A DNA stretch of 50,738 bases from an uncultured Dehalococcoidales bacterium (lineage in GTDB: Bacteria; Chloroflexota; Dehalococcoidia; GIF9; AB-539-J10). The notes beneath the pieces are model-generated. The model was not told the origin of the DNA. It did no database searches and saw nothing but the letters and a program-made list of their open reading frames with translations. Every line of letters starts with the position of its first letter. Within the stretch, counting starts at the first letter, position 1. Positions 9,285 to 48,495 of this stretch are shown here, piece after piece. A program made the translations under genes and the position numbers. The stretch lies in contig CAYYUO010000001.1 in assembly GCA_964474965.1 (NCBI GenBank), positions 1 to 50,738 on the forward strand, read 5' to 3'.

Positions 9285-9285
9285 G

Positions 9286-11023: not shown

Positions 11024-11027
11024 AACG

Positions 11028-13754: not shown

Positions 13755-13755
13755 C

Positions 13756-27645: not shown

Positions 27646-27647
27646 AC

Positions 27648-29579
27648 TTATTGCTGATCTCCATGACTTTCACTTGCGGAGCCTACTGGTACGGGTTCTG
27701 CCGAAATTGCAGGCATCTCGCCAGAAGTCTTCACTACCGCGGAAAAGCGGGGTGGGCAGACATTCAAACAGGTACCACATTTGGTGCACTTGTCTTGATC
27801 AATAACATGTACAACTCTCTTGCCACCTTTAATAGCTCCGGCAGGACAAGAACGAAGGCAAATCATACAACCCTGGCATTTCTCAGGAGCAATATAGTAC
27901 GATGTAAGAGCTTTACAAGCCAATGCCGGACACCGCTTTTCTTCTATATGAGCTTTATACTCATCACGGAAGTAGCGGATACTGGTAAGCACCGGGTTAG
28001 GAGCTGTTTGCCCCAAACCGCACAAGGAACCATCTTTGACCGATTCAGCCAATTCCTGAAGCAATTCAATATCCCCCGGTCTACCTCTTCCATTGGTTAT
28101 ATCCTCAAGTATATCTAGCATTTGTTTTGTGCCCCAGCGACATGGTATGCACTTACCGCAAGATTCAGCTTGGGTAAAGTTGAGGAAGAATTTTGTAATA
28201 TCGACCATGCAAGTATCGTCATCAATGACTACCATCCCACCCGAACCCATAATTGACCCTGCCTGGGCAAGAGACTCGTAATCAACAGGCAAGTCAATCA
28301 AACTCTCGGGTATGAAACCACCTGATGGGCCACCGGTTTGCACTGCCTTCAAGTGTTTGCCTTCAGGAATACCCCCACCTATGTCATATACGATTTCACG
28401 CAAGCTAATCCCCATTGGGACCTCTATAAGCCCAGTGCGAACAATTTTGCCTGCCAAAGAAAAGTTCTTGGTGCCCTTGCTCTTTTCCGTACCATAGCTG
28501 GCGTACCATTCGGCACCTTTCGGGAAAATAGCTGAGACATTGCTCCAAGTCTCCACATTATTGATAGTTGTCGGGTTCCCCCATAGGCCAGACTGGGCGG
28601 GGAAAGGAGGACGGGAGCGAGGCATCCCTCTCTTGCCTTCAATAGAAGCCATCAGCGCTGTCTCCTCTCCACATACAAAAGCACCGGCTCCCTCTTTTAC
28701 CTTGATATGGAATCTAAAGCCAGAGCCCATAATATCGTCACCTATTAACCCATATTCCTCCATTTGCTTGATAGCAATCCGTAACCTCTGGATCGCTAGC
28801 GGATACTCAGCTCGGATATAAATGTACCCTTCAGTCGCACCGATAGCATAAGCCCCTATAAGTATTCCTTCAATTACAGCATGCGGATCGCCTTCAAGAA
28901 GCGCCCGATCCATGAATGCCCCAGGATCCCCCTCGTCAGCATTACATATCACATATTTGATATTACCGGGAGCATCGCGGCAAAACTGCCATTTAACTCC
29001 AGTTAGAAAGCCCGCACCACCACGGCCTCTCAATCCCGATTTCTTTATCTCATCAATCACTTCCTGGGGTTTCATTCTCAACGCCTTAGCCAGACCTTCA
29101 TAGCCACCATTAGCAATATAATGGTCTATACTTTCAGGATCGATATTTCCACAATTGCGCAAGGAAATACGGACTTGAGGCTTGAGTACAGGCAAGTCAA
29201 AGAGATTGGGAATACCATCCAATGTCCCTTCGCCGCGAATGCCCAAAGCTAACTCAGAACGAGGGTTGCCGCTAATTAAATAATCCTTGACGATCTCAGG
29301 TATAATTTCAGGGGTTAGATTGCCATAAAAGACGCCAGGCATGCCTGGTTTTATTACTTCGATCAAGGGCTCTGCATAACAGAGACCAATACACCCGACT
29401 TGAAGGATATCAGCTTGAATATTCTGCTGGGCTAGCTCTTGATTAAGAACATCGAGTATATCTTCAGCACCAGCTGCTCGCCCACAAGTTCCCATGCCGA
29501 TTAAAATACGGGGGGTTTCGCTTTGCTGCATTGCTTTCCATTGTAGTGCAGCTTGACCTTTGATTTCTTCGAAATTCAC
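27648..29579 (-). CDS. NuoF/HydB-like NAD(P)H-FMN Fe-S flavoprotein (Trx-like 2Fe-2S N-domain, C-terminal 2x[4Fe-4S]), 643 aa
   Basis: GLRGRGGAGFLTGVKW, NADEGDPGAF, ESCGKCIPCR and C-terminal CQGCMICLRSCP / CTKCGTCLNVCP. GTGA overlap with the upstream nuoE-like gene. Confidence 0.88.
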   Translation of the reverse strand: MNFEEIKGQAALQWKAMQQSETPRILIGMGTCGRAAGAEDILDVLNQELAQQNIQADILQVGCIGLCYAEPLIEVIKPGMPGVFYGNLTPEIIPEIVKDYLISGNPRSELALGIRGEGTLDGIPNLFDLPVLKPQVRISLRNCGNIDPESIDHYIANGGYEGLAKALRMKPQEVIDEIKKSGLRGRGGAGFLTGVKWQFCRDAPGNIKYVICNADEGDPGAFMDRALLEGDPHAVIEGILIGAYAIGATEGYIYIRAEYPLAIQRLRIAIKQMEEYGLIGDDIMGSGFRFHIKVKEGAGAFVCGEETALMASIEGKRGMPRSRPPFPAQSGLWGNPTTINNVETWSNVSAIFPKGAEWYASYGTEKSKGTKNFSLAGKIVRTGLIEVPMGISLREIVYDIGGGIPEGKHLKAVQTGGPSGGFIPESLIDLPVDYESLAQAGSIMGSGGMVVIDDDTCMVDITKFFLNFTQAESCGKCIPCRWGTKQMLDILEDITNGRGRPGDIELLQELAESVKDGSLCGLGQTAPNPVLTSIRYFRDEYKAHIEEKRCPALACKALTSYYIAPEKCQGCMICLRSCPAGAIKGGKRVVHVIDQDKCTKCGTCLNVCPPRFSAVVKTSGEMPAISAEPVPVGSASESHGDQQ

Positions 29580-30088
29580 TGTCCCCCCTTGTTTAATATC
29601 TCCCCTACCTTTGTCGCTGTCATCCTCCCATGCACCTTATTGTTAATAACCACAACTGGTGCCAGTGCACAAGAACCAAAACAGGCTATCGTCTCTAACG
29701 AATATTCCAGATCCGGCGTAGTCTCACCGGCACTGATGCCTAATTGTTTTTCCATTTCACCAAGGATCTGTGCACTACCACGCACATGACAGGCAGTCCC
29801 CCGGCACACTCTGATGATATTTCTCCCTGTTGGTATAAGTTTGAATTGAGCATAAAATGTAACTACGCCAAAGACGGTGCTTTCCGGCAACTTAAGAAAC
29901 TTAGCTATCTTTTTCATAGCCAGCTCTGGCAGGTAGCCAAACACCTGTTGGACTTGCTGTAAGATAGGGATAAGCTGATCCTCACTGCCTTCATAGGAGG
30001 ATAAAATTTCGTTCAGGCTTTCCTCAACAGTCGTCTCCCGCTCCGCTAAAAGCACTTGGGTGCCCTGCCCTACTGAAGAATTCGCCAT
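29576..30088 (-). CDS. NuoE/HydC-like 2Fe-2S thioredoxin-like ferredoxin, 170 aa
   Basis: LIPILQQVQQVFGYLP...VCRGTACHVRG...CFGSCALAP are NuoE-family motifs. Start taken at ATG 30088. Confidence 0.88.
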   Translation of the reverse strand: MANSSVGQGTQVLLAERETTVEESLNEILSSYEGSEDQLIPILQQVQQVFGYLPELAMKKIAKFLKLPESTVFGVVTFYAQFKLIPTGRNIIRVCRGTACHVRGSAQILGEMEKQLGISAGETTPDLEYSLETIACFGSCALAPVVVINNKVHGRMTATKVGEILNKGGQ

Positions 30089-30188
30089 TTCACACCTCAC
30101 TATTTACCATTTTGGTTGAGATAGCCTTGAGATAGACATCTTCAAAGTATCCAACCAACTAATTTCGCGGGAATAGCTCGAATGTTGG

Positions 30189-30309: not shown

Positions 30310-30966
30310 TTAAGTAGAGGGAATGTCTCTAACTAGCTTCCAGATGATAGTTTCGGTAAGCACAGTTACATCCTCAGTGGAGAGGTAATCAGAAATATTA
30401 GCATCGAACAATATGTTCCCATTGGGAGCAAGCTCCTCATCACCTCTCCATAACACTAAAGTTATGGGCACATAGTCGAAAGCATTAACTGTCACAGATA
30501 CATCCCCGTAGTCTGTCTCACGGCCTCCTAACTTTGTTGCTGCCTTTATTAGCATCTCGGGATTTTTACCAAAGTGTTTTACGAAAGGGGCTATCGCCCT
30601 TTGGGAAAATGCCGGGAAATAACTAATGCCTCCCGGTAGCTGTTTATATGTCACCAATACACTGGTGGCAGGGGTGCCCTTTGCCAAAGTGAAATAGTGA
30701 AGTATCAGGATTTTGTCCTTCTGTGAAACTTCCACGTTGCTATCCTCCAACGATATTTCAGCATCAGGGAGGGTAATGTGATACGGTTGATTTAGATAAT
30801 TAATGACTACCTCGTTGGACCCTACATACCGCGCACCACTTTTACGGCATTGCTCTTGTATATCGCTGATTTTGGTCAACTGCTCACGAGCAAGTTGATA
30901 GGAAAACTCAAAACCCTGCTCCCGAGAACCAAGAGAACCACGTAATGAATAATGTTGGTTTTTCAT
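30310..30966 (-). CDS. DUF3786-domain protein, 218 aa
   Basis: My recollection of DUF3786 proteins that accompany corrinoid/ACS clusters. 1-nt TAATG overlap with metF. Confidence 0.55.
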   Translation of the reverse strand: MKNQHYSLRGSLGSREQGFEFSYQLAREQLTKISDIQEQCRKSGARYVGSNEVVINYLNQPYHITLPDAEISLEDSNVEVSQKDKILILHYFTLAKGTPATSVLVTYKQLPGGISYFPAFSQRAIAPFVKHFGKNPEMLIKAATKLGGRETDYGDVSVTVNAFDYVPITLVLWRGDEELAPNGNILFDANISDYLSTEDVTVLTETIIWKLVRDIPST

Positions 30967-31920: not shown

Positions 31921-32652
31921 CTATACTCCTAACGCTTCTATCACCTTCTTCGTCCCCTTCAATTCCTGTAGCAGGTCAATGGCTTCAACCTCTAAACTGC
32001 GTGGTCTTACTGCTTTACTCCAATCATGCGGTTCTTGTATTTTCAAGAGCTCATCAAGTTCACCAAGTTTTCCTAATCTCTTATATATCATGACCCAAGC
32101 GCAGTCACGTGTAGGATCTACTTCACACTTGCCATCTGTAGCTGTCCCGCCACACGGGCCATTCAACAATCCTTTGGGGCATTGTACCAGCGGACAAATA
32201 CCCGCGGTCCTCCCAAGTTCGCATTCACCGCAGGCCTGACATTCTTCTTTGAACTTGCTAGGTCCTCCACTGGAAAACCCAAGGGCGTTGTTTGCTGGAT
32301 AAATAGGCTTTACGATACCCATTTCCTCTTCCAAATATCCTCGCACCGCTTGCGCGCCATCACCGCAACTCTGCATTAATATGGCATCACACTTCTCTAT
32401 CTCCTCCCTGTGCTCCTTCAAAAACATAGAGGACATAGGAAGGTAGCAGGTAAATACGGCAAATGGCAATCCAATTTTACCTGCAATCTCCTTCCCCTCC
32501 TTCGTCAATTTCTCTGCCATCTCATCCACGTCTTTTATGCCACCTGTGTGAAAGATTGTGGCACATCCTCCACACCCCATCAGAAATATCCTTTTCTTAC
32601 CTTCAAGATATCCTAGAATCTCCTCAAAAGGTTTTTGGACTTGTGCATTCAT
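31921..32652 (-). CDS. metV: MetV-like protein (MTHFR C-terminal zinc-ribbon domain), 243 aa
   Basis: CQACGECELGRTAGICPLVQCPKGLLNGPCGG...GKCEV is the hallmark of the MTHFR_C family. SD GAGGAGG lies 6 nt before ATG 32652. Confidence 0.8.
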   Translation of the reverse strand: MNAQVQKPFEEILGYLEGKKRIFLMGCGGCATIFHTGGIKDVDEMAEKLTKEGKEIAGKIGLPFAVFTCYLPMSSMFLKEHREEIEKCDAILMQSCGDGAQAVRGYLEEEMGIVKPIYPANNALGFSSGGPSKFKEECQACGECELGRTAGICPLVQCPKGLLNGPCGGTATDGKCEVDPTRDCAWVMIYKRLGKLGELDELLKIQEPHDWSKAVRPRSLEVEAIDLLQELKGTKKVIEALGV

Positions 32653-32734
32653 TTCTTTCCTCCTCAATAATTTATATATCCGACATGTGAGCCGGGGTAG
32701 CTCTTAAGGGCTGCCTCTCTCACCCACAATGACA

Positions 32735-33385
32735 TTAAGAAAGCCTCTTCACCGGAGGCCCTGATGTAAGGCTCACACTCCAATTCTTCGGTGTCACAAG
32801 CCTTTCCAATTTATCAAGTTGTCCTAGTTTGGCAAGGCGATCGACAATCTGTTGCCAGACGCAGGGTATATCTGGATCAACTTCACATTTACCACCTTGT
32901 GAGCCGCCACAGGGACCATTAAGCAGATGCTTAGAACATCGGGCAATGGGACAGAGTCCACCAGTAAAATCCAGCACACAATCACCACACTCAAGGCAGC
33001 GCTCCGCTTCTTTCCACTCGGCATGAGCACCACCTGAGGACAGAGTGTTGCAGCCAGGATGTACTACCTTATTCACTAATTCCGCTACAGTCTGCACTCC
33101 AGCCCCATCGGTCAGAATCAGGATAGAATCGGCAGCAGCAATTTCCTTTTTATAAGCTCTGAGTTTCAACTTGGTTAACGTGCTATCACATAGCATATCA
33201 ACAACTACTGAACCCGAGACAGCTTTACCCCGTTCCTGCAAAGCGTTTTTCATTTCTGCCACTTGCTTTTCCCCGCCACTCCCCCAACCCTCAGCACAAC
33301 CTTTACAACCAATTAGAAAGATACTCTTATCCCCTTCAAGATAGCTCAGGATTTCTTCAAGTGGTTTTTGCTCCGAAATCAGCAT
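32735..33385 (-). CDS. Second MetV-like paralogue, 216 aa
   Basis: CLECGDCVLDFTGGLCPIARCSKHLLNGPCGGSQGGKCEV, with the same N-terminal ILSYLEG..IFLIGCKGC module as the neighbour. Confidence 0.78.
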   Translation of the reverse strand: MLISEQKPLEEILSYLEGDKSIFLIGCKGCAEGWGSGGEKQVAEMKNALQERGKAVSGSVVVDMLCDSTLTKLKLRAYKKEIAAADSILILTDGAGVQTVAELVNKVVHPGCNTLSSGGAHAEWKEAERCLECGDCVLDFTGGLCPIARCSKHLLNGPCGGSQGGKCEVDPDIPCVWQQIVDRLAKLGQLDKLERLVTPKNWSVSLTSGPPVKRLS

Positions 33386-33858
33386 TTCGTCTCTCCTTTA
33401 GGATTTGTATTATTAAGTTCTGCCAAAATGGCATCTATTATCTGAGGCATTTTTTCTTGAAGCTCCGGAGATAATTCCAACCCCCAGTCAACTTCCTTAG
33501 GCTCAACTCCAATAATGACAGCCTCATCTATCCCGATAAAATCAGGCTGCCAAAGCTGCATTAACATTAAGCTATCCACTAAGCCCAAATCGTGAAGGGA
33601 TAGAAATGGCTTTCGCTCTAGATTTATATCTTCAAGATGAAAGCGGTAGATTTGTCCTGGCACTCCCTCACCCTTAACAGCATCCACTATGATCAATTTA
33701 TCAGCGTCCTCAAGAAACTGCAGTACATCGGGGCATGTCCCCCCATCCATTATTTTTACATCGGGGAGAGGGATCCCCTCCAAAGCATGTGCCACATGAC
33801 AACCAATCCCTTCGTCTCTTAACAAGACATTCCCTATGCCCAGAACAAATTTCCCCAT
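33379..33858 (-). CDS. [NiFe]-hydrogenase maturation endopeptidase (HybD/HycI/HoxW family), 159 aa
   Basis: MGKFVLGIGNVLLRDEGIG...IVDAV...LSLHD motifs. Start set at internal ATG 33858. Confidence 0.85.
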   Translation of the reverse strand: MGKFVLGIGNVLLRDEGIGCHVAHALEGIPLPDVKIMDGGTCPDVLQFLEDADKLIIVDAVKGEGVPGQIYRFHLEDINLERKPFLSLHDLGLVDSLMLMQLWQPDFIGIDEAVIIGVEPKEVDWGLELSPELQEKMPQIIDAILAELNNTNPKGETKC

Positions 33859-33883
33859 TCCTGAACTTTCCTCCAAATTTTTA

Positions 33884-35443
33884 CTAACAAACCCTGAATT
33901 TCCCCAGGTCATGCCCTTTAAGACTGAGCAAATGCACAGAACAGGCGAGACAAGGGTCGAAGGCCCTCACAATGCGCACTATCTCAAAGGGATTAACCTC
34001 ATCCTTTATCTTGGTGCCAGTGATAGCCTGCTCCAAGGGTCCAGGTTGGTCTTTATCATCCCTGGGAGAAATATTCCAGGTAGAAGGGGTAATGACCTGG
34101 TAATTAGCAATCTTGCCTTCTTTTATTTCTATCCAGTGTCCGAGGGCACCCCTCGCCGCACCGACAAGTCCCATCCCAGTAGCTCCTTCTGGGAGTTCGT
34201 AGCTTGTGTAAGCTGGCTCACCGGGCTTGAGCTCTAGAACCCAGTCGGCCATAGCATCGGCTATGAGTTTGGTCTCCAAGGCTCGAGCAAGATTTCGCCC
34301 CATGACAGAAAACATCTTGTCGGGGCCTATATTTGCCTGGGATAAGGCAGAATCAACCAGGTTCTTGACTCCGGTATTGCCAGCGACATAGTTGACCATG
34401 ATTCGAGCCAGTGGCCCGACTTCAAAAACCGTCCCGCCATAACGGGGTGATTTTAGCCAGGAATAAGCTCCCTTCTTTTCTTCATCAAGAACAACGTCTC
34501 CCTTAGAGGGATGTTTGCCGCTGATAGAATCGGCATACCAAGAATGCCTCACCTCTTCAGTGATCTTAGTTGGATCACATTCATTAAACTTAAGACTGGT
34601 AGAGGTAGTCCCCGGCTTAAAAAATCTTTTCCGCTTGGTGAGGTCCGCTTCCTTTCCATCCAGTTCATAGGAGCCATAAGCAAGCAGGTTCCCACAGCCA
34701 CTACCAATCTCAAAATAATCTGAGTAAACGCCGGCCACTGCCAGTACATCTGGGAGGTAAATATTATCAATAAACTCCTGGATCTCCTTCAACCTCCACA
34801 GGAAGGAGGTCATATTGTCAACCGTGGGTACAGAGGCAACTCCACCGGGCATTACGCCCATGTTGTGAGGCATCTTACCACCGAACAGGGCAAGCATCTC
34901 CTGGCTTTTACGACGCATGTCAAAGGCGGCAACATAATGGGCCACCGCCTGCTCATTGACCTCCTCGGGCAGACGATAATCACCTTCATAACGAGGTACA
35001 AAGGGTCCCAATTCTCCACGCGCAATAAAGCTCTTTATTGAATTTAAGGCGGGATTATTCCCTTCATACTTTGCTAATTTAGCCACATCTACATAGTCAA
35101 GAGCTACCAGGTGATAAAAATGAAGAATGTGGTCAGCGATATGGGCTGCCCCGAGGACGATATTGCGAATAATTCTGCCGTTGTCGGGTATTTTGTCGGC
35201 GATGCCAAAGGCACTATCCAGATTTAAAGCAGCGGCAATAGAATGGCTTGTCGGGCAAACTCCACAAATACGTTGAGCTATCCGCTGGGCATCACGGGGA
35301 TCCCTACCCCTCATGATCAGCTCTAAGCCGCGGAACAGTGTCCCTGAACTTCTAGCCTCTTTCACCTTACCACCCTCAACTACTGCCTCCACCTTGAGAT
35401 GTCCCTCAAGACGGGTAACTGGATCAATTATGATCTTGCCCAT
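33884..35443 (-). CDS. [NiFe]-hydrogenase large subunit (group 1/2-like), 519 aa
   Basis: IIIDPVTRLEGHLKVE, L1 motif QRICGVCPTSH and C-terminal DPCLACSVH followed by a 15-aa cleavable extension. Start at ATG 35443, SD GAGGAGG. Confidence 0.92.
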   Translation of the reverse strand: MGKIIIDPVTRLEGHLKVEAVVEGGKVKEARSSGTLFRGLELIMRGRDPRDAQRIAQRICGVCPTSHSIAAALNLDSAFGIADKIPDNGRIIRNIVLGAAHIADHILHFYHLVALDYVDVAKLAKYEGNNPALNSIKSFIARGELGPFVPRYEGDYRLPEEVNEQAVAHYVAAFDMRRKSQEMLALFGGKMPHNMGVMPGGVASVPTVDNMTSFLWRLKEIQEFIDNIYLPDVLAVAGVYSDYFEIGSGCGNLLAYGSYELDGKEADLTKRKRFFKPGTTSTSLKFNECDPTKITEEVRHSWYADSISGKHPSKGDVVLDEEKKGAYSWLKSPRYGGTVFEVGPLARIMVNYVAGNTGVKNLVDSALSQANIGPDKMFSVMGRNLARALETKLIADAMADWVLELKPGEPAYTSYELPEGATGMGLVGAARGALGHWIEIKEGKIANYQVITPSTWNISPRDDKDQPGPLEQAITGTKIKDEVNPFEIVRIVRAFDPCLACSVHLLSLKGHDLGKFRVC

Positions 35444-35447
35444 TAAT

Positions 35448-36311
35448 TCAAACCTCCTCTGGCAAAGCAGCTTCGCTAGTTTTTTCATAGAGCGGGGCTA
35501 TGTCGAAGAACCCGGGCTCGGTGCAGCCAATACAAGTTGCACCACAGCCTACACACCAACTAACTTTATTGTTCCATAACCTTAGAGGACAATCGGCATG
35601 GGTTATAGGTCCCCTACACCCCAATTCATAGTTGCACCCGGGATCGCCGAACTTCTTAGCAAACTTATTCTCATCATAGTAGGCTCGCCGTGGGCAGTTT
35701 TCGTGGATTGTTTGCCCATAGAAGGCCTTAGGACGCCCAAGCTCGTCCAAATCCTCCGGCTTCGGCAGACCGGAAAGCAGAATGCTTGCCACCGTACCCA
35801 CAAACCAGTCAGGGTGTGGTGGACAACCGGGGATGTTTACCACTGGAGTATTGATGCCTTTGGCCTGGAGAATCCCACTGACGCTGCGACACTGAGTAGG
35901 GTTAGGTTGGGCAGCGGGAATTCCCCCAAAGGCAGCACAGCTACCCAAAGCGATGACCGCCAGGGCATCCTTGGCCAATGTTTCAACCCACGATTTCATG
36001 GTCATTGGCTTCCCATCCTTTTCACCAACCACCCCATGGATACCACCCTTAGCAGTGGGTATAGCCCCTTCTACAATCAGGATGTAACCTTTCTTTTTCT
36101 TCCGTGATGTATCCACCATAACCTCAATGGCAGACGCTCCCGCCCCCGCCATTACAGTAGGATGGAACCTTAGATTTATATGACTGCCCGGGAGCACTTC
36201 GTCAACTAAGAGGTTTTTAATAGAGGGATTTATAACATTGAGAAGAGAGACTGAGCACCCGGTACATCCAGCGGCTTGTAACCATATCGCCGGGTATTCT
36301 TTTGTATCCAT
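35448..36311 (-). CDS. [NiFe]-hydrogenase small subunit, no Tat signal peptide, 287 aa
   Basis: First proximal-cluster Cys at residue 16 (WLQAAGCTGCS). GSCAAFGG, GCPPHP, IHENCPRR, GCRGP...DCP...SWCVGCGATCIGCTEP. Confidence 0.9.
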   Translation of the reverse strand: MDTKEYPAIWLQAAGCTGCSVSLLNVINPSIKNLLVDEVLPGSHINLRFHPTVMAGAGASAIEVMVDTSRKKKKGYILIVEGAIPTAKGGIHGVVGEKDGKPMTMKSWVETLAKDALAVIALGSCAAFGGIPAAQPNPTQCRSVSGILQAKGINTPVVNIPGCPPHPDWFVGTVASILLSGLPKPEDLDELGRPKAFYGQTIHENCPRRAYYDENKFAKKFGDPGCNYELGCRGPITHADCPLRLWNNKVSWCVGCGATCIGCTEPGFFDIAPLYEKTSEAALPEEV

Positions 36312-36374
36312 GAGTCCTTACCTGCCTTTCGACTTACTTTCTCAAATCCTCCACCGTGGAGGATATTTTCTCAA

Positions 36375-37142
36375 TCATAAAGGTAAACGTTCAACTATCT
36401 CTTTGACCTTTAATTGAAGGGGAGATTCCCGGGGAAGTTCGGTTACGGGCCTCCCTTTCATTTCCAAACCTGCTATATTGGGGTCTTCTGGAATCAGAGC
36501 AATAATCTGAAGGCCAGATTCGTCAATTGCCTTCTTTATCTCCGGAGATAATTCACCCTTGACACGGTTGACTATAAGTCCAAGTTCACCTATCTTTGTT
36601 CTCAATTCTCCAATGAGTTCCTTAATTCGCGCTGCTGCAGTAATACCTCTCATCGTGGGGTCAGACATAATAAGCAAAACATCCACATCTCTGGTTGTTT
36701 GGCGGCTAATGTGTTCCATGCCTGCTTCGCAGTCCATGACAATATAATTATATTTATAATCTTTCACCAGCTTATCCAAGGAGACGCGCAGGAATTCATT
36801 GGGCGCACAATAGCATCCTGGCCCTTCCGGACGCCCCATGGCTAAAAGGTCAAAGCCTTCGGACTCTACCAAGGATTCCAGTATCTTGCCAAACAGATAT
36901 TCCTGCTTGGCAATGGTGGGGCTTAAACGACCCTTGGAGATATCCTCAGTCATCTTTTCCCGTATTCTACCCACAGTCTTACTATCATCCAGAGGCAGAC
37001 CCAGCGCCTGGTTAAGATTGGTGCTAGGGTCAGCATCTACAGCCAGTACCAACCCCTTTTGAGAAAGGAGCTTGATGAGTAAGGCAGCAACACTAGTCTT
37101 ACCTGTACCCCCTTTTCCTGCGACAGCAACCGTTTTGGTCAT
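36375..37142 (-). CDS. cooC: CooC/AcsF-type nickel-insertion ATPase, 255 aa
   Basis: VAVAGKGGTGKTSVAA P-loop, CYCAPNEF (CxC metal motif) and DCEAGMEH. ATGA overlap with the nuoF-like stop. Confidence 0.88.
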   Translation of the reverse strand: MTKTVAVAGKGGTGKTSVAALLIKLLSQKGLVLAVDADPSTNLNQALGLPLDDSKTVGRIREKMTEDISKGRLSPTIAKQEYLFGKILESLVESEGFDLLAMGRPEGPGCYCAPNEFLRVSLDKLVKDYKYNYIVMDCEAGMEHISRQTTRDVDVLLIMSDPTMRGITAAARIKELIGELRTKIGELGLIVNRVKGELSPEIKKAIDESGLQIIALIPEDPNIAGLEMKGRPVTELPRESPLQLKVKEIVERLPL

Positions 37143-39043
37143 TTCCTTGCTCTCTTTTCAGACAAATTTGAGGAAGGCAACGAGCTAACAGGCGATACCT
37201 TCACCACTGCATTATACTCGGGAGGGCAGACTTCCAAGCATGTACCACACTTAGAGCACTTTTCCTGGTCTATGATTTTAACTTCCCCTTTACCTCCCTT
37301 AATTGCTTCTGTGGGACAGGTCAACACACAATGCTCACAGGCTCTATCACACTTATCTGGAAGGATATAATAAGCAGTGAGTTCGGGACATACTCTGGCA
37401 GGGCAACGCTTTTCCAGGATGTGAGCTTCGTATTCATCACGGAAATAACGCAGGGTTGTGAGGACAGGGTTGGGAGCTGTTTTTCCTAAGCCACAAAGCG
37501 ACCCTATCTTAACATCCTCAGCTAATGAGAGGAGAAGGTCAATATCCTCTATTTTGCCTCGGCCAGCCGTGATGTCCTCCAAAATGTTTAGCATTTGCAA
37601 AGTCCCTAAGCGACACATAGTGCATTTGCCGCAGGATTCCTTGGTAGAGAAATCAAGAAAAAACCTCGCAGCATCAACCACGCAGTTATCCTCATCCATG
37701 ACAATCATACCCCCCGAGCCCATCATCGAGCCAGCCTCTCGAAGAGAATCATAGTCGATAGGGATGTCGAGCAAAGTCTCGGGAAGACAACCCCCCGAGG
37801 GTCCTCCTATCTGTACTGCCTTAAATTGCTTGTCTTTAGCAATTCCTCCACCTATATCATAAATAAGCTCACGCAGTGTTGTTCCCATAGGTACTTCGGC
37901 CAATCCCGAATTGGCTACTTTGCCTGCCAGGGTAAACACCGCCGTGCCTTTGCTTCCCTCAGTGCCATTGGAGGCGAACCAATCCGCACCTCGTTTAACT
38001 ATCAAAGGAACATAGGCAAAAGTTTTCACATTGTTTAATAAAGTGGGCCTACCCCACAAGCCAGACTCTGCGGGATAAGGTGGCCTGGGGCTAGGTGTGC
38101 TCATCCTCCCTTCAACAGCCGCTATCAGTGCTGTTTCTTCACCAGAGACGAAAGCACCAGCTCCTGCTGCTATTTCGATATGGAAACCAAAACCACTCCC
38201 TAAGATATTATCTCCCAGGAAACCTAGTTCCCCGGCTTGCTTTAAAGCAATCTGCACGCGCTCAATAGCTAAAGGGTATTCAGCACGGACATAGATATAC
38301 CCTTGCTCGGCACCTACGACGTAACCGGCAATAATCATGCCTTCGATAACCTGATGGGGGTCGCTTTCCAGAACAACCCGGTCCATAAAAGCACCGGGGT
38401 CTCCTTCATCGGCGTTGCATACTACATATTTTGGCGTGCTTTTAGCCTTACGGCATAGCTCCCACTTTCGATGTGTAGGAAATCCAGCCCCTCCCCGCCC
38501 CCGCAGCCCCGACTTTTGCAGTTCCCCAACTATTTCCTCAGGCGGCATCTTTAACGCCTTCTCCAGACCGCTATAACCGCCATTAGCGATGTAATGATTT
38601 ATATTCTCAGGATTTATGTAACCACAGTGTCTCAATATGAGGCGAAGCTCATGTTCGAACCTGGGAAGTTCTGGAATGTAAACGCCTTCTTCACCGTCTC
38701 CTTCAAGGGTACCTAAGGCAAGCTCGAGGCAAGGGTCATCGCCCACAATATAGCCTTCCACAAGGCGGGATACAGTCTCCGGAGTTACATTGTGATACAC
38801 GACGCGAAGAGAATCAGGCTTACATATAGTAACCAGGGGATCGGCATAGCATAGTTCTATGCAGCCAACCTGGATAATCGGGACTTCCAAGCCTCTCCGT
38901 GTTAGCTCCTTATTAAAGGCGTCAACTACATCCAGGGCACCGGCTGCCCGACCACAAGTAGCTGTGCCGACAATAATGTAGCTGCCCTTCTGCAGAGCCG
39001 CCCATTCCGACTGCGCTTTATTATTAATTTCCTCAAAAGTCAT
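37139..39043 (-). CDS. NuoF/HydB-like NAD(P)H-FMN Fe-S flavoprotein, second paralogue, 634 aa
   Basis: GLRGRGGAGFPTHRKW, NADEGDPGAF, ESCGKCTMCR and C-terminal CEHCVLTCP / CSKCGTCLEVCP. Start uncertain (ATG 39043 or GTG 39052), with no clear SD. Confidence 0.85.
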   Translation of the reverse strand: MTFEEINNKAQSEWAALQKGSYIIVGTATCGRAAGALDVVDAFNKELTRRGLEVPIIQVGCIELCYADPLVTICKPDSLRVVYHNVTPETVSRLVEGYIVGDDPCLELALGTLEGDGEEGVYIPELPRFEHELRLILRHCGYINPENINHYIANGGYSGLEKALKMPPEEIVGELQKSGLRGRGGAGFPTHRKWELCRKAKSTPKYVVCNADEGDPGAFMDRVVLESDPHQVIEGMIIAGYVVGAEQGYIYVRAEYPLAIERVQIALKQAGELGFLGDNILGSGFGFHIEIAAGAGAFVSGEETALIAAVEGRMSTPSPRPPYPAESGLWGRPTLLNNVKTFAYVPLIVKRGADWFASNGTEGSKGTAVFTLAGKVANSGLAEVPMGTTLRELIYDIGGGIAKDKQFKAVQIGGPSGGCLPETLLDIPIDYDSLREAGSMMGSGGMIVMDEDNCVVDAARFFLDFSTKESCGKCTMCRLGTLQMLNILEDITAGRGKIEDIDLLLSLAEDVKIGSLCGLGKTAPNPVLTTLRYFRDEYEAHILEKRCPARVCPELTAYYILPDKCDRACEHCVLTCPTEAIKGGKGEVKIIDQEKCSKCGTCLEVCPPEYNAVVKVSPVSSLPSSNLSEKRARK

Positions 39044-39092
39044 GGTAAACACAAGATAGAAACAGAGATAGATAAGGGATAGGGACTCTGCC

Positions 39093-39584
39093 TCAACTCT
39101 TCTCTTTCTGAGTGTCTTGCTTATACGAGGCCAACACCTCTTCCACCTTAAAAGGCGTCATCTTAGGATGAATTTTATCCTTTATCACTATTACGGGAGC
39201 CAGCATGCAGCACCCGATACAAGCGACCCTTTCCAAGCTAAAGTTACCATCTTCGTCAGTCCTGCCTACTTTAATATCTAACTCACGCTCCAGGGCCTCC
39301 AAAATAAGTCTACCCCCCGCTAAGTGACAGGCAGTCCCCATACAAACCGTGGTGTGGTACTTACCTAACGGAACAAAACGGAACTGGTTATAAAAGGTAG
39401 CAACCCCCCAAACCTCAACCTCTGGCATCTCCAAGAAGTCAGCAATTTCTTGCATAGTTTTCTTGGGGAGATATCCCAGCTTTGTCTGAACTTCTTGCAA
39501 TAGCGGGATTAAATTTTTTTTCTCCTTTTTATGCGAGCTTAGAATCTTAGCTACCGCTTGGCTAGCTTGTTTTTCTGCAATCAT
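39093..39584 (-). CDS. NuoE/HydC-like 2Fe-2S protein, second paralogue, 163 aa
   Basis: LIPLLQEVQTKLGYLP...VCMGTACHLAG...CIGCCMLAP. ATGA overlap with the acsC stop. Confidence 0.88.
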   Translation of the reverse strand: MIAEKQASQAVAKILSSHKKEKKNLIPLLQEVQTKLGYLPKKTMQEIADFLEMPEVEVWGVATFYNQFRFVPLGKYHTTVCMGTACHLAGGRLILEALERELDIKVGRTDEDGNFSLERVACIGCCMLAPVIVIKDKIHPKMTPFKVEEVLASYKQDTQKEKS

Positions 39585-40945
39585 TCTTTAAGTTGCTTAG
39601 CAAATCCAGGCAGGAAGGCCGCTATTCCAGTCGTTTCCCGGGGACCGATTATTATCTCCCATTCGAGGTTCAAAGCATCTTCGAGCTCGCCTTTGATTCT
39701 GGCCACTTTCCCCGGGATAATTATCTTTCTATGTTCCACCTTATCCTCGATGCCACATTTCTTGATAAATGTTCCTACGGAATCGCCGCTAAACTTACCT
39801 GCTGCCCAGGCAGTGAGGACACCAAGCCCTTCCGCGTCCTTAACACAAACGTAGGCGGGAACCTTGGTAGCCTCGACAGCCGATGAGACAAGGAAGTAGG
39901 TCAAAGCCCAATTTGAAGTGACGAGTACTGGGGAGGATTCGTCAGGTTCTCCCACTTCATAATACTTCTCCTCTACTGCCATAGGAAAACGAGGATCGGT
40001 ATAAATGTTAAGCCGTTGAACTAGAAGAGGAAGCAGGGAGTGTTGGTCGAAATCAGAAAGGACAATAATGCCGGCCCATTTATTTATAAACGCCGAGCCC
40101 GCTATGATTTCCTTCAGTCCATCTTTGACCATGAAGCAAGGAAAGGCAATAGTGGGATAGCCAAGAGGCCTGAAACCCTGCTTTAGCGCTGCCCTTCTGA
40201 TAAAGGTTTGGTCTCTTATCGCCTCCACTAAATTTTTAGAACCAGGGTCTAAAACCACTTCCTCAATCCCAGCATCTTTTAACTTGGTAGTTAGAGGAAC
40301 AAGTTCCTCAATACTCCCTCCACGAAGGCCAACAGGAGTAAGATTCTCTTTAATCTTTGGAATGGCCTCGTCAATGTTTTCCTTCGTTATGGGGTAAAGA
40401 AGTGGACGTCTATCCGCACATATATCCCGTGCCGCAAATAAGACATCCATATCTTCTGAGATTAAGACCATACCCAGGTTTGTTGAATCATAAACTTTCT
40501 TCACCAAAGCCAAAAACTTGTCCTTGCTCCCCGATTCAAAATAGATTGCCAAAAGGTCTGCCTTTAGATTTACGCCGACCCAGGGGAATTGCATTTCCCT
40601 TATCTTCTTTATTTTTCCCTCAATTTTGGCATTGTCTTCCTTGTCTGAGATAAGGAGGACAATGCCTGGCGAATGGACAAAGGTCTTTTCATGACGGTAT
40701 ATCACTTCTTCATTCCCGATTTTGACAGCGTTCTCCCCAGAGCCTATGGTAACAAGTTTTATCGGTGGTGCCAGAAGATCCAGCAGCTTGGCTTTTGTCT
40801 CTTCGGAGAGGTAAGGACATTTGTCTACAGTAGCTCCACCCGACGCTAGCTTCATGGCAAAAGCAAAACAAGTAGGGAAGCCACAGTCCTTACACGGTCT
40901 CCTTCCGGGAAGCAACTTTACAATCTCAGAACCTGCAACTGGCAT
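39581..40945 (-). CDS. acsC: Corrinoid iron-sulfur protein large subunit (AcsC / CdhE-like), 454 aa
   Basis: N-terminal 4Fe-4S motif CKDCGFPTCFAFAMKLA...CPY, then a TIM-barrel and a Rossmann-like C-domain. SD GAGGAGG lies 6 nt before ATG 40945. Confidence 0.88.
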   Translation of the reverse strand: MPVAGSEIVKLLPGRRPCKDCGFPTCFAFAMKLASGGATVDKCPYLSEETKAKLLDLLAPPIKLVTIGSGENAVKIGNEEVIYRHEKTFVHSPGIVLLISDKEDNAKIEGKIKKIREMQFPWVGVNLKADLLAIYFESGSKDKFLALVKKVYDSTNLGMVLISEDMDVLFAARDICADRRPLLYPITKENIDEAIPKIKENLTPVGLRGGSIEELVPLTTKLKDAGIEEVVLDPGSKNLVEAIRDQTFIRRAALKQGFRPLGYPTIAFPCFMVKDGLKEIIAGSAFINKWAGIIVLSDFDQHSLLPLLVQRLNIYTDPRFPMAVEEKYYEVGEPDESSPVLVTSNWALTYFLVSSAVEATKVPAYVCVKDAEGLGVLTAWAAGKFSGDSVGTFIKKCGIEDKVEHRKIIIPGKVARIKGELEDALNLEWEIIIGPRETTGIAAFLPGFAKQLKE

Positions 40946-41006
40946 AGCAAACCTCCTCAATTAAAACTGGGACAGCATTATGAATTTCACCTTTTACCTC
41001 TGACAT

Positions 41007-42254
41007 TTACGTTGGAAGCTCTACTTCCCCTTTTATCCAGGGATGCCCCACTTTTTCTAAGAACTCTAGAAGCTCATCCACGTTTTTAACGTCTTCCTCT
41101 GTGGCTATTTTATCGTAGAGTCCTTTCGCTTCCAGGACATCTTTAAACCTTTCCTTTATCTCCTTGGGCATCCACACTATTCTGGCCAGGCCACCGTCCG
41201 CCTGGATGAATTTGGGAGACCTTAGTTGCTCCAGTCCAGTTCCCAATCTTCCTTCTATTTGTTTTCCTCCAGAAGTTTCACCAGCCATGTGGGAAAATGT
41301 CTCTCCTACTACAGTTTCACTCTTGAAGTCTCTGTTCACTACTCCAAAGGCATCCACCTCAGGAATGTAATATACAATTGCTTCGAAACAGCCACAAGAT
41401 GTATGGGGGTGCTCAAATGCACTATAGAGATAAACTCTATCGTAGTTTCCCAGAGACTTTTCAGCTTCAATTGCATTCGCTCCTGAATATTCACCTTTTA
41501 TAGCATCTATAAGCTCTCCCTTCGGTATGGCAAATATGGGTCCCTCAGGGTCAATCTTGGCAGCAGCTCTGCCGTCAAACCAGTTTATCGCTCCACAGTT
41601 GGCAATTCTATTTGGAGTTATGATAGAGATATGGGTTGGGGCGAAGCTCTGGCATAGAACACAGCCGTAGAAAGTATCCACATCCTCATCATTCAAGGTC
41701 CTTGCCCGCTCATCCCTGGCGGCATAAACTTCCAAAGCGTGGGGAAGAAGCTCCTCTATCTTTTTTTCATCGGTGATAATAGTGACTTGGATGCTCTCGA
41801 TGATTGGCATCTCTGATGTATAAAGCAAGATATAAATTTCTCCCAATTCCCGCAGGGAATTAAAGCCCTTTTTATAGCAGTCTTTATTCATCCTAATCCA
41901 TACATCCTGCCTCTGATTCATATGATACCAGCCCTCAGTCATATTGGTGAACATGTGAATTCTTCTCTCAATGATTGCTTCGGCATCCTTGTCCAATTCA
42001 CTCCCGGCAACGTCTACCAGAATGGCAATAGGATAGCTACCACCGCCTTTCTCTGCATCATAAGGTTTCAAATCACCGATGTCTGGGCCAATAATTTCTA
42101 CTTTCTCATTCTCTATTTCATCAGGGCTCTTAACTGTTGCTAATTCAAACTTATGTGCTGCTTTTGGCCCACCGAACTCGATGTAGAGGTCTTGTTTTCT
42201 TATCACCTCTCCTTCATACTGTGGTCCCATATCTACATGAAATTCGCCTTCCAT
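41007..42254 (-). CDS. cdhC: Acetyl-CoA synthase catalytic subunit, short archaeal-type (CdhC-like), 415 aa
   Basis: A-cluster region CVLCQSFAPTH...HTSCGCFEA (Cys-Gly-Cys). Lacks the long N-terminal domain of bacterial AcsB. Confidence 0.88.
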   Translation of the reverse strand: MEGEFHVDMGPQYEGEVIRKQDLYIEFGGPKAAHKFELATVKSPDEIENEKVEIIGPDIGDLKPYDAEKGGGSYPIAILVDVAGSELDKDAEAIIERRIHMFTNMTEGWYHMNQRQDVWIRMNKDCYKKGFNSLRELGEIYILLYTSEMPIIESIQVTIITDEKKIEELLPHALEVYAARDERARTLNDEDVDTFYGCVLCQSFAPTHISIITPNRIANCGAINWFDGRAAAKIDPEGPIFAIPKGELIDAIKGEYSGANAIEAEKSLGNYDRVYLYSAFEHPHTSCGCFEAIVYYIPEVDAFGVVNRDFKSETVVGETFSHMAGETSGGKQIEGRLGTGLEQLRSPKFIQADGGLARIVWMPKEIKERFKDVLEAKGLYDKIATEEDVKNVDELLEFLEKVGHPWIKGEVELPT

Positions 42255-42260
42255 CTTCCT

Positions 42261-42812
42261 TTAGTCTCCTTTCTTTAAATTGGCTATCAAGCTTTCTAAG
42301 AACTCCTGCCACTTCGCATCCTTCTTGAAATTAGGGAGCGAGTAATTGGCATGGGGGAAGTAATACTTGCACAGCGTCATAGTCTTTAAATGAGGTGCAA
42401 AGTGTTTGAGTGTAGAAAGGCTTTGGTTACCAAGATCCGACCTTATGCCGAAGAAGATCACCAGGTCATGGTTTCCCTCCTTCTTAACTCCCTGCCAGTC
42501 AGGGTCCTTAAGAGCATTAGCTATCTCGACGGTATCGTAAACGCAATCTGGCTGTACTCCCAACTCCACGATTTTCCCTCTAGTCTGGGCTGTCGCACAT
42601 ATTGGAATACCAGCCGCTTTGGCTATGTCCAAAGCATACTCCATAAGTAATTTTCCATCAGGCAGAGACTTTAACAATAGAGGACCAACTACAAGAAGTG
42701 GCCTTTTAGCCTTCTTAATCAGACTGGCATACTCCACGGGGTCTTCGATCAGCCTGGCCGATTTGATTCCCGTTAAGACGTTTACTCGGTGGCGTGGTAT
42801 TACTGCACTCAT
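42261..42812 (-). CDS. cdhB: CODH/ACS epsilon subunit (CdhB), 183 aa
   Basis: Size, position between cdhA and cdhC, and an N-terminal ...ARLIEDPVEYASLIKKAKRPLLVVGP... Rossmann-like pattern typical of CdhB. Confidence 0.75.
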   Translation of the reverse strand: MSAVIPRHRVNVLTGIKSARLIEDPVEYASLIKKAKRPLLVVGPLLLKSLPDGKLLMEYALDIAKAAGIPICATAQTRGKIVELGVQPDCVYDTVEIANALKDPDWQGVKKEGNHDLVIFFGIRSDLGNQSLSTLKHFAPHLKTMTLCKYYFPHANYSLPNFKKDAKWQEFLESLIANLKKGD

Positions 42813-42844
42813 TTTTCTCTCCTTTTAACCATTTTCCACTACGA

Positions 42845-45151: not shown

Positions 45152-45153
45152 AT

Positions 45154-46059
45154 TTACCTCTTCTCTATCGTTTCTTTTATTAATTTCAAGGTCTCGGGAT
45201 GCCTTAAGACAATAATATTCGCTCCAGCCAAGAGAAGTGATAGCGCTGTTATTCCTTCCCAAAGCAATCCCTGTTCCTTGTTTTCCTTAGCCTGTTTTGT
45301 CTTCCAGCACTCCCCACCAAGATTGGCAATAATCGGCATCATTGTCATATTATCCTTGGTGATTATCCCAATCTGCTTCACCCTTTCCATCAGAGAAAAG
45401 CTGTATTCCATACCATAGCCTAATGCTGCGGATTCAGGATCGATGACTATCTTGTCAACGGGGAAAAATTTGCTGAGCTTTACATTTAACTCCTTCAGCA
45501 AATTGATGTCTAACGGAGTCTGGGCAATAGCCGTGTGTCCATGGTCCAGAATCGCTTTGCCCACTGCTTCGTAATTTTCCTTAATAACGGGGCCTATAAG
45601 GAGGTTCATTCCATCACATACTTCAGCGACCTTGGAAAGAACCTCAATATCCTTCTTTTCATCTCCCGAGCCATAGACAATCAAAGGCACATTTATTGCC
45701 TCGGCTACTGCTTTAGCTAATTCCGCTGCTTTGTCAGCAGGAGCATCCTTGACCGCCGGGTCGGTACTCATAAGAAAAAACGACACGGCATCTACAGCAA
45801 AGTCCTGGCATTTCTTAGCCCATTTTACAGGGTCGGAAATTACATCCTGAAAAGGCTCGACCAGATGCTTTGGCCAATCTTGAGGCTCCATATCAAGCAC
45901 TTCCAGGGCAAACTTCGCCGGATTGGGGTTTGAGCCCTGGTCAAAAAAATGCAAGGGGAGGATATTCTCCCCCCCGATCTTCAAGCTCTTCTCTCCTTTC
46001 CCGATAGTTACCTCTCTAACTACCCCAGTATATGCTTCAACTGGTGCTTTATATTCCAT
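45154..46059 (-). CDS. acsD: Corrinoid iron-sulfur protein small subunit (AcsD / CdhD-like), 301 aa
   Basis: MEYKAPVEAYTGVVREVTIGKG...KIGGENILPLHFFD is a typical AcsD N-terminus. TIM-barrel-size protein; SD GGAGGG. Confidence 0.85.
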   Translation of the reverse strand: MEYKAPVEAYTGVVREVTIGKGEKSLKIGGENILPLHFFDQGSNPNPAKFALEVLDMEPQDWPKHLVEPFQDVISDPVKWAKKCQDFAVDAVSFFLMSTDPAVKDAPADKAAELAKAVAEAINVPLIVYGSGDEKKDIEVLSKVAEVCDGMNLLIGPVIKENYEAVGKAILDHGHTAIAQTPLDINLLKELNVKLSKFFPVDKIVIDPESAALGYGMEYSFSLMERVKQIGIITKDNMTMMPIIANLGGECWKTKQAKENKEQGLLWEGITALSLLLAGANIIVLRHPETLKLIKETIEKR

Positions 46060-46071
46060 TCCTTACCCTCC

Positions 46072-46959: not shown

Positions 46960-47007
46960 ATCGAGTACCTCCGATTTATCGGTTGGGTATCCGGGATAAA
47001 CCATTGC

Positions 47008-47036
47008 AATATAGCAAGGAAAAAGCAATTTGTCAA
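47008..47036 (-). promoter_or_regulatory. Candidate strong sigma70-type promoter of the acsE...operon
   Basis: Minus strand TTGACA-17 nt-TATATT, ~48 nt upstream of the acsE ATG. Confidence 0.6.
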
Positions 47037-47228: not shown

Positions 47229-47396
47229 AATCTGTAAGCTAGAGATTTTGAAAAACTAAACTATTAAGACCGTTTAATTATCACCCTGACCTTAACTGAA
47301 ACGAAAAGGAAGGGTCTCTGATTCTTCGGTCGCCCTGGCGATCCCAGAATGCCAGGGAGATTATTAAACAGTCTCGACGGATAATAGGAGGTGGCA

Positions 47397-48422: not shown

Positions 48423-48477
48423 ATTGAGCTTCCGCCCATAAGGATTGCACGTTGGCAGGAAGGATATGGGAAAATTG

Positions 48478-48495
48478 TGCCTGACCAAGCAGGCA
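48478..48495 (-). terminator. Weak candidate terminator hairpin downstream of the minus-strand gene ending at 48500
   Basis: TGCCTG-6 nt-CAGGCA; on the minus strand it is followed by CAATTTTCCC. Confidence 0.3.

Follow-up and report, generated by a model that had tools for sequence, protein, structure and literature searches.

A leaderless group-1-type [NiFe] hydrogenase as putative electron-input module of MetVF in an uncultured Dehalococcoidales bacterium

Which protein takes up the electrons of a [NiFe] hydrogenase that is encoded amid Wood-Ljungdahl pathway (WLP) genes? This question is raised by contig CAYYUO010000001.1 (assembly GCA_964474965.1) of an uncultured Dehalococcoidales bacterium, analysed here over a stretch of 50,738 nucleotides (hereafter the window). 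Using open reading frames (ORFs) and profile searches we delimited a co-directional gene run of about 22 kb on the minus strand, with its closest homologues in Dehalococcoidia, in the order methyltransferase (MeTr), cdhD, cdhA, cdhB, cdhC, acsC, nuoE, nuoF, cooC, hydS, hydL, hycI, metV1, metV2, metF, DUF3786, nuoE2, nuoF2 and fdhA (the first nuoE and nuoF are called nuoE1 and nuoF1 below). The original prediction had taken nuoE, nuoF, cooC, hydS, hydL and the endopeptidase gene as one H2-coupling module, with metV as its downstream boundary. All six genes are present on the minus strand and every motif quoted for them occurs in the translations (GLRGRGGAGF and ESCGKCTMCR in NuoF1, RICGVCPTSH and DPCLACSVH in HydL, GCPPHP and HENCPRR in HydS). 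The interpretation is partly supported, with the parts right and their grouping wrong. The region is best read as the junction of two separately inherited modules in one Wood-Ljungdahl super-operon. The first (cdhD-A-B-C-acsC-nuoE-nuoF-cooC) is an archaeal-type CODH/ACS (CO dehydrogenase/acetyl-CoA synthase) with its own BfuBC pair lacking BfuA, and the second (hydS-hydL-hycI-metV-metF) a putative cytoplasmic oxidoreductase of H2 and methylene-tetrahydrofolate (methylene-THF).

Conserved neighbours of the hydrogenase genes

Scanning one genome per species with HydL gave 80 loci at 65-92% identity, mostly from Dehalococcoidia, together with six metagenome-assembled genomes (MAGs) of Desulfobacterota and one of Actinomycetota; with the loci found through NuoF1, described below, the whole comparison covers about 160 related loci. 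Neighbours were located by tblastn with the window's proteins, and each count includes only those loci whose contig reaches far enough. In 73/73 loci metV lies no more than 1 kb downstream of hydL, and in 64/65 metF lies no more than 3 kb downstream, while hydS is found upstream in 74/75 and hycI nearby in 66/79. The corresponding counts upstream of hydL are 15/54 for nuoF, 16/62 for cooC and 13/47 for acsC. The proposed gene order acsC-nuoEF-cooC-hydSL holds within the window's clade, at HydL identities of at least 74%, where nuoEF-cooC-hydSL is contiguous in 15/21 loci, and is lost below that identity, where nuoF is upstream in 0/33. These numbers speak against NuoEF, CooC and HydSL as a single module, and metV, far from marking the boundary, is the conserved partner of the hydrogenase.

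Annotation-free clustering of all ORFs within 8 kb of hydL recovered HydL in 80, HydS in 78, MetV in 75, MetF in 66 and HycI in 65 of the 80 loci, followed by DUF3786 (25), CooC (25), NuoE (19) and NuoF (18). Other recurrent families were HypD/E/F, a cNMP-domain histidine kinase with a response regulator, and a FAH-family protein. No extra recurrent redox partner emerged near HydSL from this 80-locus clustering save an HdrA-like protein of about 1025 aa, encoded upstream in nine loci (L071, L077, L080, L084, L028-L030, L044 and L050), where it belongs to a second, Moorella-type metVF set just upstream of the HydSL-MetVF module. In the first four of these, which are Desulfobacterota, the second metV-metF is directly upstream, so that two methylene-THF reductase (MTHFR) systems with different input modules adjoin. 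HydSL thus shows strict synteny with metV-metF across three phyla, and in the complete Dehalococcoidales genome CP070842.1 (L001/L036) hydS-hydL-hycI-metV-metF stands as an isolated cluster.

The MetVF-type MTHFR pair is recognised by PF02219 (MetF) and PF12225 (MetV). MetV forms one family, whereas MetF comes in two types, with 33 and 26 loci, whose distribution does not track the hydrogenase. MetV proteins, including a domain fused to an RnfC-like protein in locus L103 (see below), keep eight invariant Cys in the C-terminal domain. The window holds two MetV paralogues, which are 42% identical; the N-terminal segment of MetV1 reads LTDGAG, with Asp where the other four aligned MetV have Cys (xSCGxG or MTCGIG), and the second window MetV keeps the N-terminal Cys that MetV1 lacks. 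In the PDB there is no solved MetV-containing complex and nothing close to this MetF.

Class and location of HydSL

In comparisons with PDB entries HydL scored 445 bits against the D. vulgaris NiFeSe enzyme (5jsu_B) and 437 bits against the [NiFe] enzyme of the same species (1h2a_L), about 310-335 bits against E. coli Hyd-1 and Hyd-2, and 220 bits against Huc (7utd/7uus). Scores of 88-108 bits were obtained with F420-reducing, Mvh-, HydABCSL- and NAD-reducing-type enzymes, among them the NAD-reducing hydrogenase 5xf9_D (90 bits) and A. mobile HydL (7t2r_D, 102 bits over the N-terminus only). On the ranking of PDB and NCBIfam scores HydSL is classified as a group-1-type (1a/1b-like) catalytic [NiFe] hydrogenase. 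A NAD-coupled 3b/3d or HydABCSL-type enzyme, the class that the original prediction had named as its own counter-case, was rejected on the same ranking, and for HoxEFUYH (group 3d) it also holds that HoxU is not adjacent and that the HoxE model reaches 132 bits against a cutoff of 224. Among the HydL orthologues R[IV]CGVC is present in 80/81, DPCxxCxxH in 81/81 and a 15-residue C-terminal extension in 80/81. The HydL-type enzyme of L001/L036 has Cys, not selenocysteine, at the Ni ligand position; in that CP070842.1 locus (4381-8832) selB, selA and a selD-like gene lie directly upstream of the module.

Of the earlier label 'group 1/2 uptake-type' the group-1 part is supported (445 bits, against 88-108 bits for group 3). 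That HydSL is a group-2b-like, H2-sensing regulatory hydrogenase controlling the WLP operon is hardly credible. Sensor hydrogenases are made without a C-terminal extension and endopeptidase, have Ile for Val in CGxC, which narrows the gas channel, and are encoded adjacent to a HoxJ/HoxA-type two-component system. A missing Tat (twin-arginine translocation) signal would fit such a role, as would the cNMP-binding histidine kinase seen in 15/80 HydL loci (e.g. L034, 13642-14784) and the receiver-domain protein seen in 14; however, more than 80% of the loci lack the kinase, the best matches are catalytic group 1a/1b enzymes, and the Val at the gas-channel position (CGVC), the C-terminal extension and the dedicated endopeptidase argue for a catalytic and not a sensory enzyme. 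Both the kinase and the receiver gene are located downstream of metV; some loci have them placed between metV and another metF copy.

The small subunit begins as a mature protein would: HydS residue 3 aligns to residue 5 of the mature NiFeSe small subunit of Dm. baculatum (1cc1_S). No proximal or distal ligand is missing, four Cys occupy the medial site, and all ligand positions align with 1cc1_S, which is consistent with three [4Fe-4S] clusters and bears out the three-cluster subunit proposed before. Since the hydS ORF starts 15 residues before the first Cys and an upstream stop prevents its extension, the Tat leader is absent at about the normal cleavage point. A Tat-bearing alternative start was rejected, as the ORF is bounded by that stop and the orthologues are leaderless too (0 of about 75 with a Tat leader). 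No cytochrome b or membrane partner is encoded with HydSL in the window, and no cytochrome b, HybA-like or cytochrome c3-type partner or membrane anchor recurs in the 80 HydL loci. HydSL is accordingly predicted, from the missing Tat leader, to be cytoplasmic.

For the deep relatives of HydS 1.8 billion cluster representatives were searched exhaustively. Among the full-length hits the closest one (P0241, 57% HydS identity) is leaderless and again comes from an isolated hydS-hydL-hycI-metV-metF cluster, and nearly all further full-length relatives, at 51% identity or less, carry RRxF-type leaders. Two Tat-bearing proteins at about 51% served as controls and are encoded without metVF: P0242 in the order hydL-hycI-hydS followed by a HybA-like Fe-S protein, resembling the Hup of Dehalococcoidia, and P0244 as hydS-hydL-cytochrome b; the contigs of P0293 and P0310 are too short for informative gene context. 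The two controls suggest that the MetVF linkage is specific to the leaderless clade, which seems to have branched off, as a cytoplasmic line, from periplasmic group-1 enzymes. With the periplasmic group 1a/1b hydrogenases (D. vulgaris, Dm. baculatum) and the Hup-type enzymes of Dehalococcoidia HydSL shares the fold, the motifs, the three-cluster small subunit, the processed large subunit and a HupD/HycI-type protease, and the large subunit of the nearest Tat-bearing relative, at 519 aa, equals the window HydL in length. Unlike these enzymes it lacks a Tat leader, a C-terminal anchor and a HybA-like or cytochrome partner, and has metVF instead.

HydSL as putative electron-input module of MetVF

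We consider the chances somewhat better than even that HydSL is the direct electron-input module of MetVF, both forming one enzyme that works without a soluble carrier. H2 would be split at the Ni-Fe site of HydL, the electrons would pass through the three Fe-S clusters of HydS to those of MetV and on to the flavin of MetF, and methylene-THF would be reduced to methyl-THF. HydSL would in this way take the role that RnfC2 has in Acetobacterium woodii and HdrABC-MvhD in Moorella and Sporomusa. That HydS touches MetV, that the electrons run in this direction and that no carrier takes part is what we infer from sequence and gene context. From the standard potentials of H+/H2 (-414 mV) and methylene-/methyl-THF (-200 mV) (PMC9586279, PMC6895022) a ΔG0' of about -41 kJ/mol is calculated for the transfer from H2 to methylene-THF. 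The H2-driven reaction would be favourable even at the very low H2 of sediments, and the reverse, H2 formation from methyl-THF as suggested for syntrophic acetate oxidisers, could proceed only at extremely low H2.

A direct HydSL-MetV unit is supported by the invariant synteny, by the isolated clusters of P0241 and CP070842.1, by the overlap of the hycI stop with the metV1 start (7 nt, ATGCTGA), which together with the 4 nt between the hydS stop and the hydL start points to translational coupling, and by co-inheritance: in pairwise-identity matrices of 59 complete loci HydS-MetV gave r = 0.92, against 0.94 for HydL-HydS, 0.68 for HydS-MetF and 0.63 for HydL-MetF. The restriction of the MetVF linkage to leaderless enzymes, with Tat-bearing relatives lacking metVF, counts in the same direction. 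That HydSL may occupy the electron-input slot of the MTHFR is further indicated by locus L103, which has the cdh-acsC-nuoEF-cooC backbone of the window with the hydS-hydL-hycI-metV slot replaced (10834-12861) by a 675-aa fusion of a MetV domain, RnfC_N, Complex1_51K (FMN) and 2x[4Fe-4S], followed by metV-metF-DUF3786. This fusion matches, in domain content, the RnfC2-type NADH-dependent MTHFR of A. woodii, of which RnfC2 is reportedly a subunit.

Several points weigh against this assignment. Synteny is evidence of functional linkage, not of a physical complex, and the identity-matrix correlations are inflated and confounded by shared phylogeny, so they are supportive only. A fusion of HydS or HydL with MetV was not found in the 80 loci, and the 120 best MetV1 homologues have the MetV domain alone, although these are matches of at least 90% identity and uninformative on distant fusions. 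About 41 kJ/mol would be dissipated with no evident gain in conserved energy, which one would not expect where energy is limiting. Finally, in the window's clade BfuBC lies 0.8 kb upstream in the same transcript-like unit and may participate.

We regard it as unlikely that HydSL and MetVF are co-regulated but separate enzymes, with ferredoxin or flavodoxin as a carrier between them. Such an arrangement would resemble that of C. ljungdahlii, where MetVF alone is a complete enzyme and reduced ferredoxin the hypothesised donor (PMC8760232). The hydL-metVF synteny fits co-regulation equally well, and the lack of fusion proteins, both in the 80 HydL loci and among the MetV1 homologues of at least 90% identity, is in keeping with it. 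On the other hand, no ferredoxin gene is recurrent in the module according to the ORF clustering of the 80 loci, transfer from H2 to ferredoxin is uphill at low H2, and the tight hycI/metV overlap and the co-inheritance of HydS and MetV are more readily accommodated by direct contact, as is the RnfC2-type protein fused to a MetV domain in the equivalent slot of L103.

Direct input from HydSL to MetVF would extend what is known of this reductase family. The MTHFR arrangements in the literature consulted are MetVF alone, MetVF-RnfC2 and MetVF-HdrABC-MvhD, with a hydrogenase in none of these. The MetF-MetV-RnfC2 enzyme of A. woodii ('type III') likewise has a MetF and MetV core with its input subunit encoded beside metVF; here a two-subunit [NiFe] hydrogenase with its own protease is found instead, and the donor would be H2, not NADH. 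The MetFV-HdrABC-MvhD enzyme of Moorella thermoacetica and Sporomusa ovata ('type IV') likewise joins MetVF to a redox input module of several subunits. With S. ovata membranes an H2-dependent reduction of methylene-THF was measured; the hydrogenases there are Tat-exported and cytochrome b-linked, they oxidise H2 in the periplasm, and the electrons take a quinone and Hdr route to the MTHFR (PMC9430772). In contrast, the hydrogenase described here is predicted to be cytoplasmic and is encoded with metVF, in a module without Hdr and MvhD. A functional analogy, and no more than that, exists with the hydrogen-dependent CO2 reductase (HDCR), whose [FeFe] hydrogenase and formate dehydrogenase are unrelated in sequence to this module; in HDCR a hydrogenase is wired directly to a Wood-Ljungdahl reductase and is not known to use a soluble carrier.

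The nearest precedents are two genomes of syntrophic acetate oxidisers among the Firmicutes, each with a signal-less [NiFe] hydrogenase beside metF. That of 'Ca. Syntrophonatronum acetioxidans' was called 'group 5' and possibly H2-producing in acetate oxidation (PMC6295475), and that of 'Ca. Contubernalis alkaliaceticus' was proposed to be NADH-oxidising (PMC10608574). These are single genomes with one sentence each, and the hydrogenase-metF adjacency that they note appears to be the same; the two independent reports count in favour of a HydSL-MetVF unit.

The NuoE1-NuoF1 pair and the organisation of the window

NuoF1 is, by its sequence features, a genuine BfuB, as its HydB-like architecture had suggested. 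It scores 742 bits against A. mobile HydB and 751 bits against NfnB, aligns over its full length to 9n5u_B, 9bov_B and 7t2r_B with conserved Cys motifs, and keeps its Trx-like N-domain, FMN site, N3-type cluster and RCPAxxC motif as well as the ferredoxin domain at the C-terminus. It is 59% identical to its paralogue NuoF2; where NuoF2 and three solved BfuB have Cys (AFVCGEETAL) NuoF1 has Ser (AFVSGEETAL), and its first C-terminal ferredoxin motif contains a one-residue insertion (CxxxCxxCxxxCP). No BfuA/NuoG/HoxU-like connector is encoded between acsC and metV, in line with the original prediction; such a domain does occur about 6 kb downstream, as the NuoG/HoxU-like N-terminus of the FdhA that adjoins the second NuoEF pair. 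In Bfu enzymes of Types 1-3 it is BfuA that connects the module for the third substrate.

A metagenome scan with NuoF1 gave 80 loci, in which orthologues were counted at identities of at least 65%. acsC is directly upstream of them in 31/33 cases, always with nuoE1 between acsC and nuoF1, and a CooC or CooC-like gene follows in 25/31, whereas hydS follows in only 10/19. Several loci pass from cooC straight to DUF3786 and lack both hydrogenase and MTHFR. Among the NuoF1 relatives, L118 (72% NuoF1 identity) has an FdhA with a BfuA-like N-terminus next (4740-7307), and L131 (62%) a 218-aa HoxU/NuoG-like connector after NuoF (9872-10528) with no WLP genes nearby. From the acsC and hydS counts and the contexts of L103, L118 and L131 NuoE1F1 is assigned to the CODH/ACS module, and by this comparison it is a BfuA-less derivative, with the connector presumably lost, of a family that normally has one. 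The acsC-nuoE-nuoF-cooC context and the ATGA overlaps on both sides, which were confirmed, argue that NuoE1F1 works with CODH/ACS. It could be a Bfu module similar to Type 4 that connects NAD(H) and ferredoxin with either the carbonyl branch or the corrinoid protein. Bfu enzymes lacking BfuA form an accepted category (Schut et al.), with a partner mostly unidentified there, and the Codh-Bfu of the same authors is a Firmicutes enzyme that has BfuA (PMC9304861); a nuoEF set beside CODH/ACS was mentioned for candidate phylum NPL-UPA2 by Suzuki et al. (PMC6305446).

The same data bear on whether BfuBC and HydSL together make up a BfuA-less 'Type 4' bifurcating [NiFe] hydrogenase that supplies NADH and reduced ferredoxin to the carbonyl branch, which we hold to be distinctly improbable. 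NuoF1 shows all the features of a BfuB and matches A. mobile HydB as closely as it matches NfnB, enzymes of this kind without BfuA are recognised (PMC9304861), and nuoEF-cooC-hydSL is contiguous in most loci of the window's clade. Yet the arrangement breaks down outside that clade, the NuoF1 orthologues of 9/19 loci occur without HydSL, cooC always intervenes between nuoEF and hydSL, and the NuoF1 relatives at 62-72% identity have their own connector (HoxU-like, 218 aa, or FdhA-type BfuA) and not a hydrogenase. The A. mobile NiFe-HydABCSL enzyme likewise has a BfuB/BfuC pair near a cytoplasmic [NiFe] hydrogenase, but its HydSL, that of the structurally characterised NiFe-Bfu, is of group 3 (PMC9304861) and HydA/BfuA is essential to it, whereas the window's hydrogenase falls in group 1, BfuA is absent and the pairing is not conserved.

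Highly improbable, in our judgement, is a supercomplex of BfuBC, HydSL and MetVF, confined to the window's clade, that would be a bifurcating methylene-THF reductase in which the exergonic flow from H2 to methylene-THF drives ferredoxin reduction by a second H2, or with NADH. In its favour, all three modules of the closest clade share a strand and are set apart by short gaps, the roughly 41 kJ/mol would not simply be wasted, and the Moorella-type MetFV-HdrABC-MvhD is likewise suspected of bifurcation. Most HydSL-MetVF modules are nevertheless without BfuBC, which tracks CODH/ACS, and no precedent is known in which a Bfu core is fed by a group-1 hydrogenase or by MetV. If true, subsurface Dehalococcoidia would have, in this combination of group-1 hydrogenase, MetVF and Bfu core without BfuA, a means of saving energy that resembles Mvh-Hdr.

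In the gene run (Table 1) the two modules meet at the 63-nt gap from cooC to hydS. This gap contains a perfect 8-bp hairpin, ATCCTCCAcggTGGAGGAT, in which an anti-Shine-Dalgarno-like arm pairs with a Shine-Dalgarno-like arm; more than 15 related loci have these arms as well, both of them altered in ways that fit maintained pairing, and a conserved GAAAGGCAGGT(A/G)AGGAC stretch beside the hairpin precedes the hydS start. Rfam gave no match for the hairpin or for another known RNA element in the operon. The hydL start is placed at the ATG at 35443, just downstream of GAGGAGG, giving 519 aa (the length of nearly all homologues) and not 534 aa, and the hycI start was corrected to 33858. The order MeTr-cdhD-cdhA-cdhB-cdhC-acsC is conserved in L003-L005 and L086-L162, and the top sigma-70-like promoter match, a consensus match only, sits upstream of the likely MeTr start. 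The gene run is closed by nuoE2-nuoF2-fdhA, which appears to encode a formate dehydrogenase of the Fdh-Bfu type, after a 210-nt gap with a weak promoter-like site.

Table 1. Features of the window, with strand and the evidence or content on which each assignment rests
Feature	Position	Strand	Evidence or content
MeTr, cdhD, cdhA, cdhB, cdhC, acsC	39581..47028	-	archaeal-type CODH/ACS and corrinoid protein; ORFs; NF003195 (acsC)
sigma-70-like promoter match	47008..47036	-	TTGACA-17-TATATT, extended TG, 11/12
acsC/nuoE1 ATGA overlap	39584-39581	-	
nuoE1, BfuC-type [2Fe-2S] protein	39093..39584	-	PF01257, 170 bits
nuoF1, BfuB-type FMN/NAD(H) flavoprotein	37139..39052	-	Trx-like N-domain, Complex1_51K, SLBB, NADH_4Fe-4S, C-terminal 2x[4Fe-4S]
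nuoF1/cooC ATGA overlap	37142-37139	-	
cooC, CODH/ACS Ni-insertion ATPase, final gene in the cdh/acs module	36375..37142	-	PF01656
hairpin in cooC-hydS gap	36346..36364	-	8 bp, perfect
hydS, Tat-less [NiFe] small subunit, 287 aa	35448..36311	-	PF01058 and PF14720
hydL, [NiFe] large subunit, 519 aa	33884..35443	-	PF00374, 513 bits; NF033181, 700 bits (cutoff 600)
hycI/hupD-type maturation endopeptidase	33379..33858	-	PF01750, TIGR00072
metV1, MetV Fe-S subunit, 216 aa	32735..33385	-	PF12225
metV2, second MetV paralogue, 248 aa (longest ORF)	31921..32667	-	PF12225; in a subset of loci only (tblastn)
metF, MTHFR catalytic subunit, 309 aa	30966..31895	-	PF02219
DUF3786 protein, common WLP-operon accessory	30310..30966	-	PF12654
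weak promoter-like site upstream of nuoE2	30218-30189		
nuoE2-nuoF2-fdhA, complete Fdh-Bfu-type set	24877..30100	-	TIGR01591, 855 bits
FdhA	27645-24877	-	residues 13-223 match the HoxU model; match to the NuoG model too
Hdr-type cluster	6122-15435	+	two HdrC/B-like fusions, HdrA-like protein, MvhD (FlpD domain), 915-aa HdrA-like + GltD/NfnB-like protein, 562-aa flavoprotein with 2x[4Fe-4S]
343-aa repeat protein	47391-48422	+	tandem repeats of ~45-50 residues (…GTVVA.G.N..GQC.V..W…), RCC1-type-like
ORF antisense to the repeat protein	47526-48488		probably an artefact of the repeats

Outside the run, the plus strand carries an Hdr-type cluster whose MvhD has no Mvh hydrogenase nearby in the window and which is followed by a LuxR-type response regulator and a PAS histidine kinase. 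A repeat protein near the other end of the window carries a signal-like segment at its N-terminus and a hydrophobic anchor at its C-terminus.

Which donor supplies MetVF with electrons, and whether energy is conserved in this step, is a long-standing question in acetogen bioenergetics (PMC8760232, PMC9430772, PMC6895022), and a MetVF genetically locked to its own hydrogenase in at least three phyla is a natural case in which the donor may be readable from the operon. Biochemical work, comparative analysis or cross-phylum recognition of a HydSL-MetVF module was not found in the full-text literature, a search that had most subscription journals outside its scope, so that an earlier description is possible. 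The main interest lies in this module, with the hydrogenase as a putative new kind of MetVF input module and HydSL as a putative cytoplasmic, MetVF-coupled group-1 lineage; second comes the BfuBC pair strictly tied to archaeal-type CODH/ACS, a separate undescribed candidate for a 'Type 4' Bfu enzyme. For the group-1 hydrogenases of non-dehalogenating Dehalococcoidia, whose partner or acceptor was called unclear by Hug et al. (PMC3971608), MetVF is a candidate partner. Such enzymes are likely annotated at present as periplasmic uptake hydrogenases, and H2 oxidation may therefore be misplaced in reconstructions of sediment Chloroflexota and Desulfobacterota.

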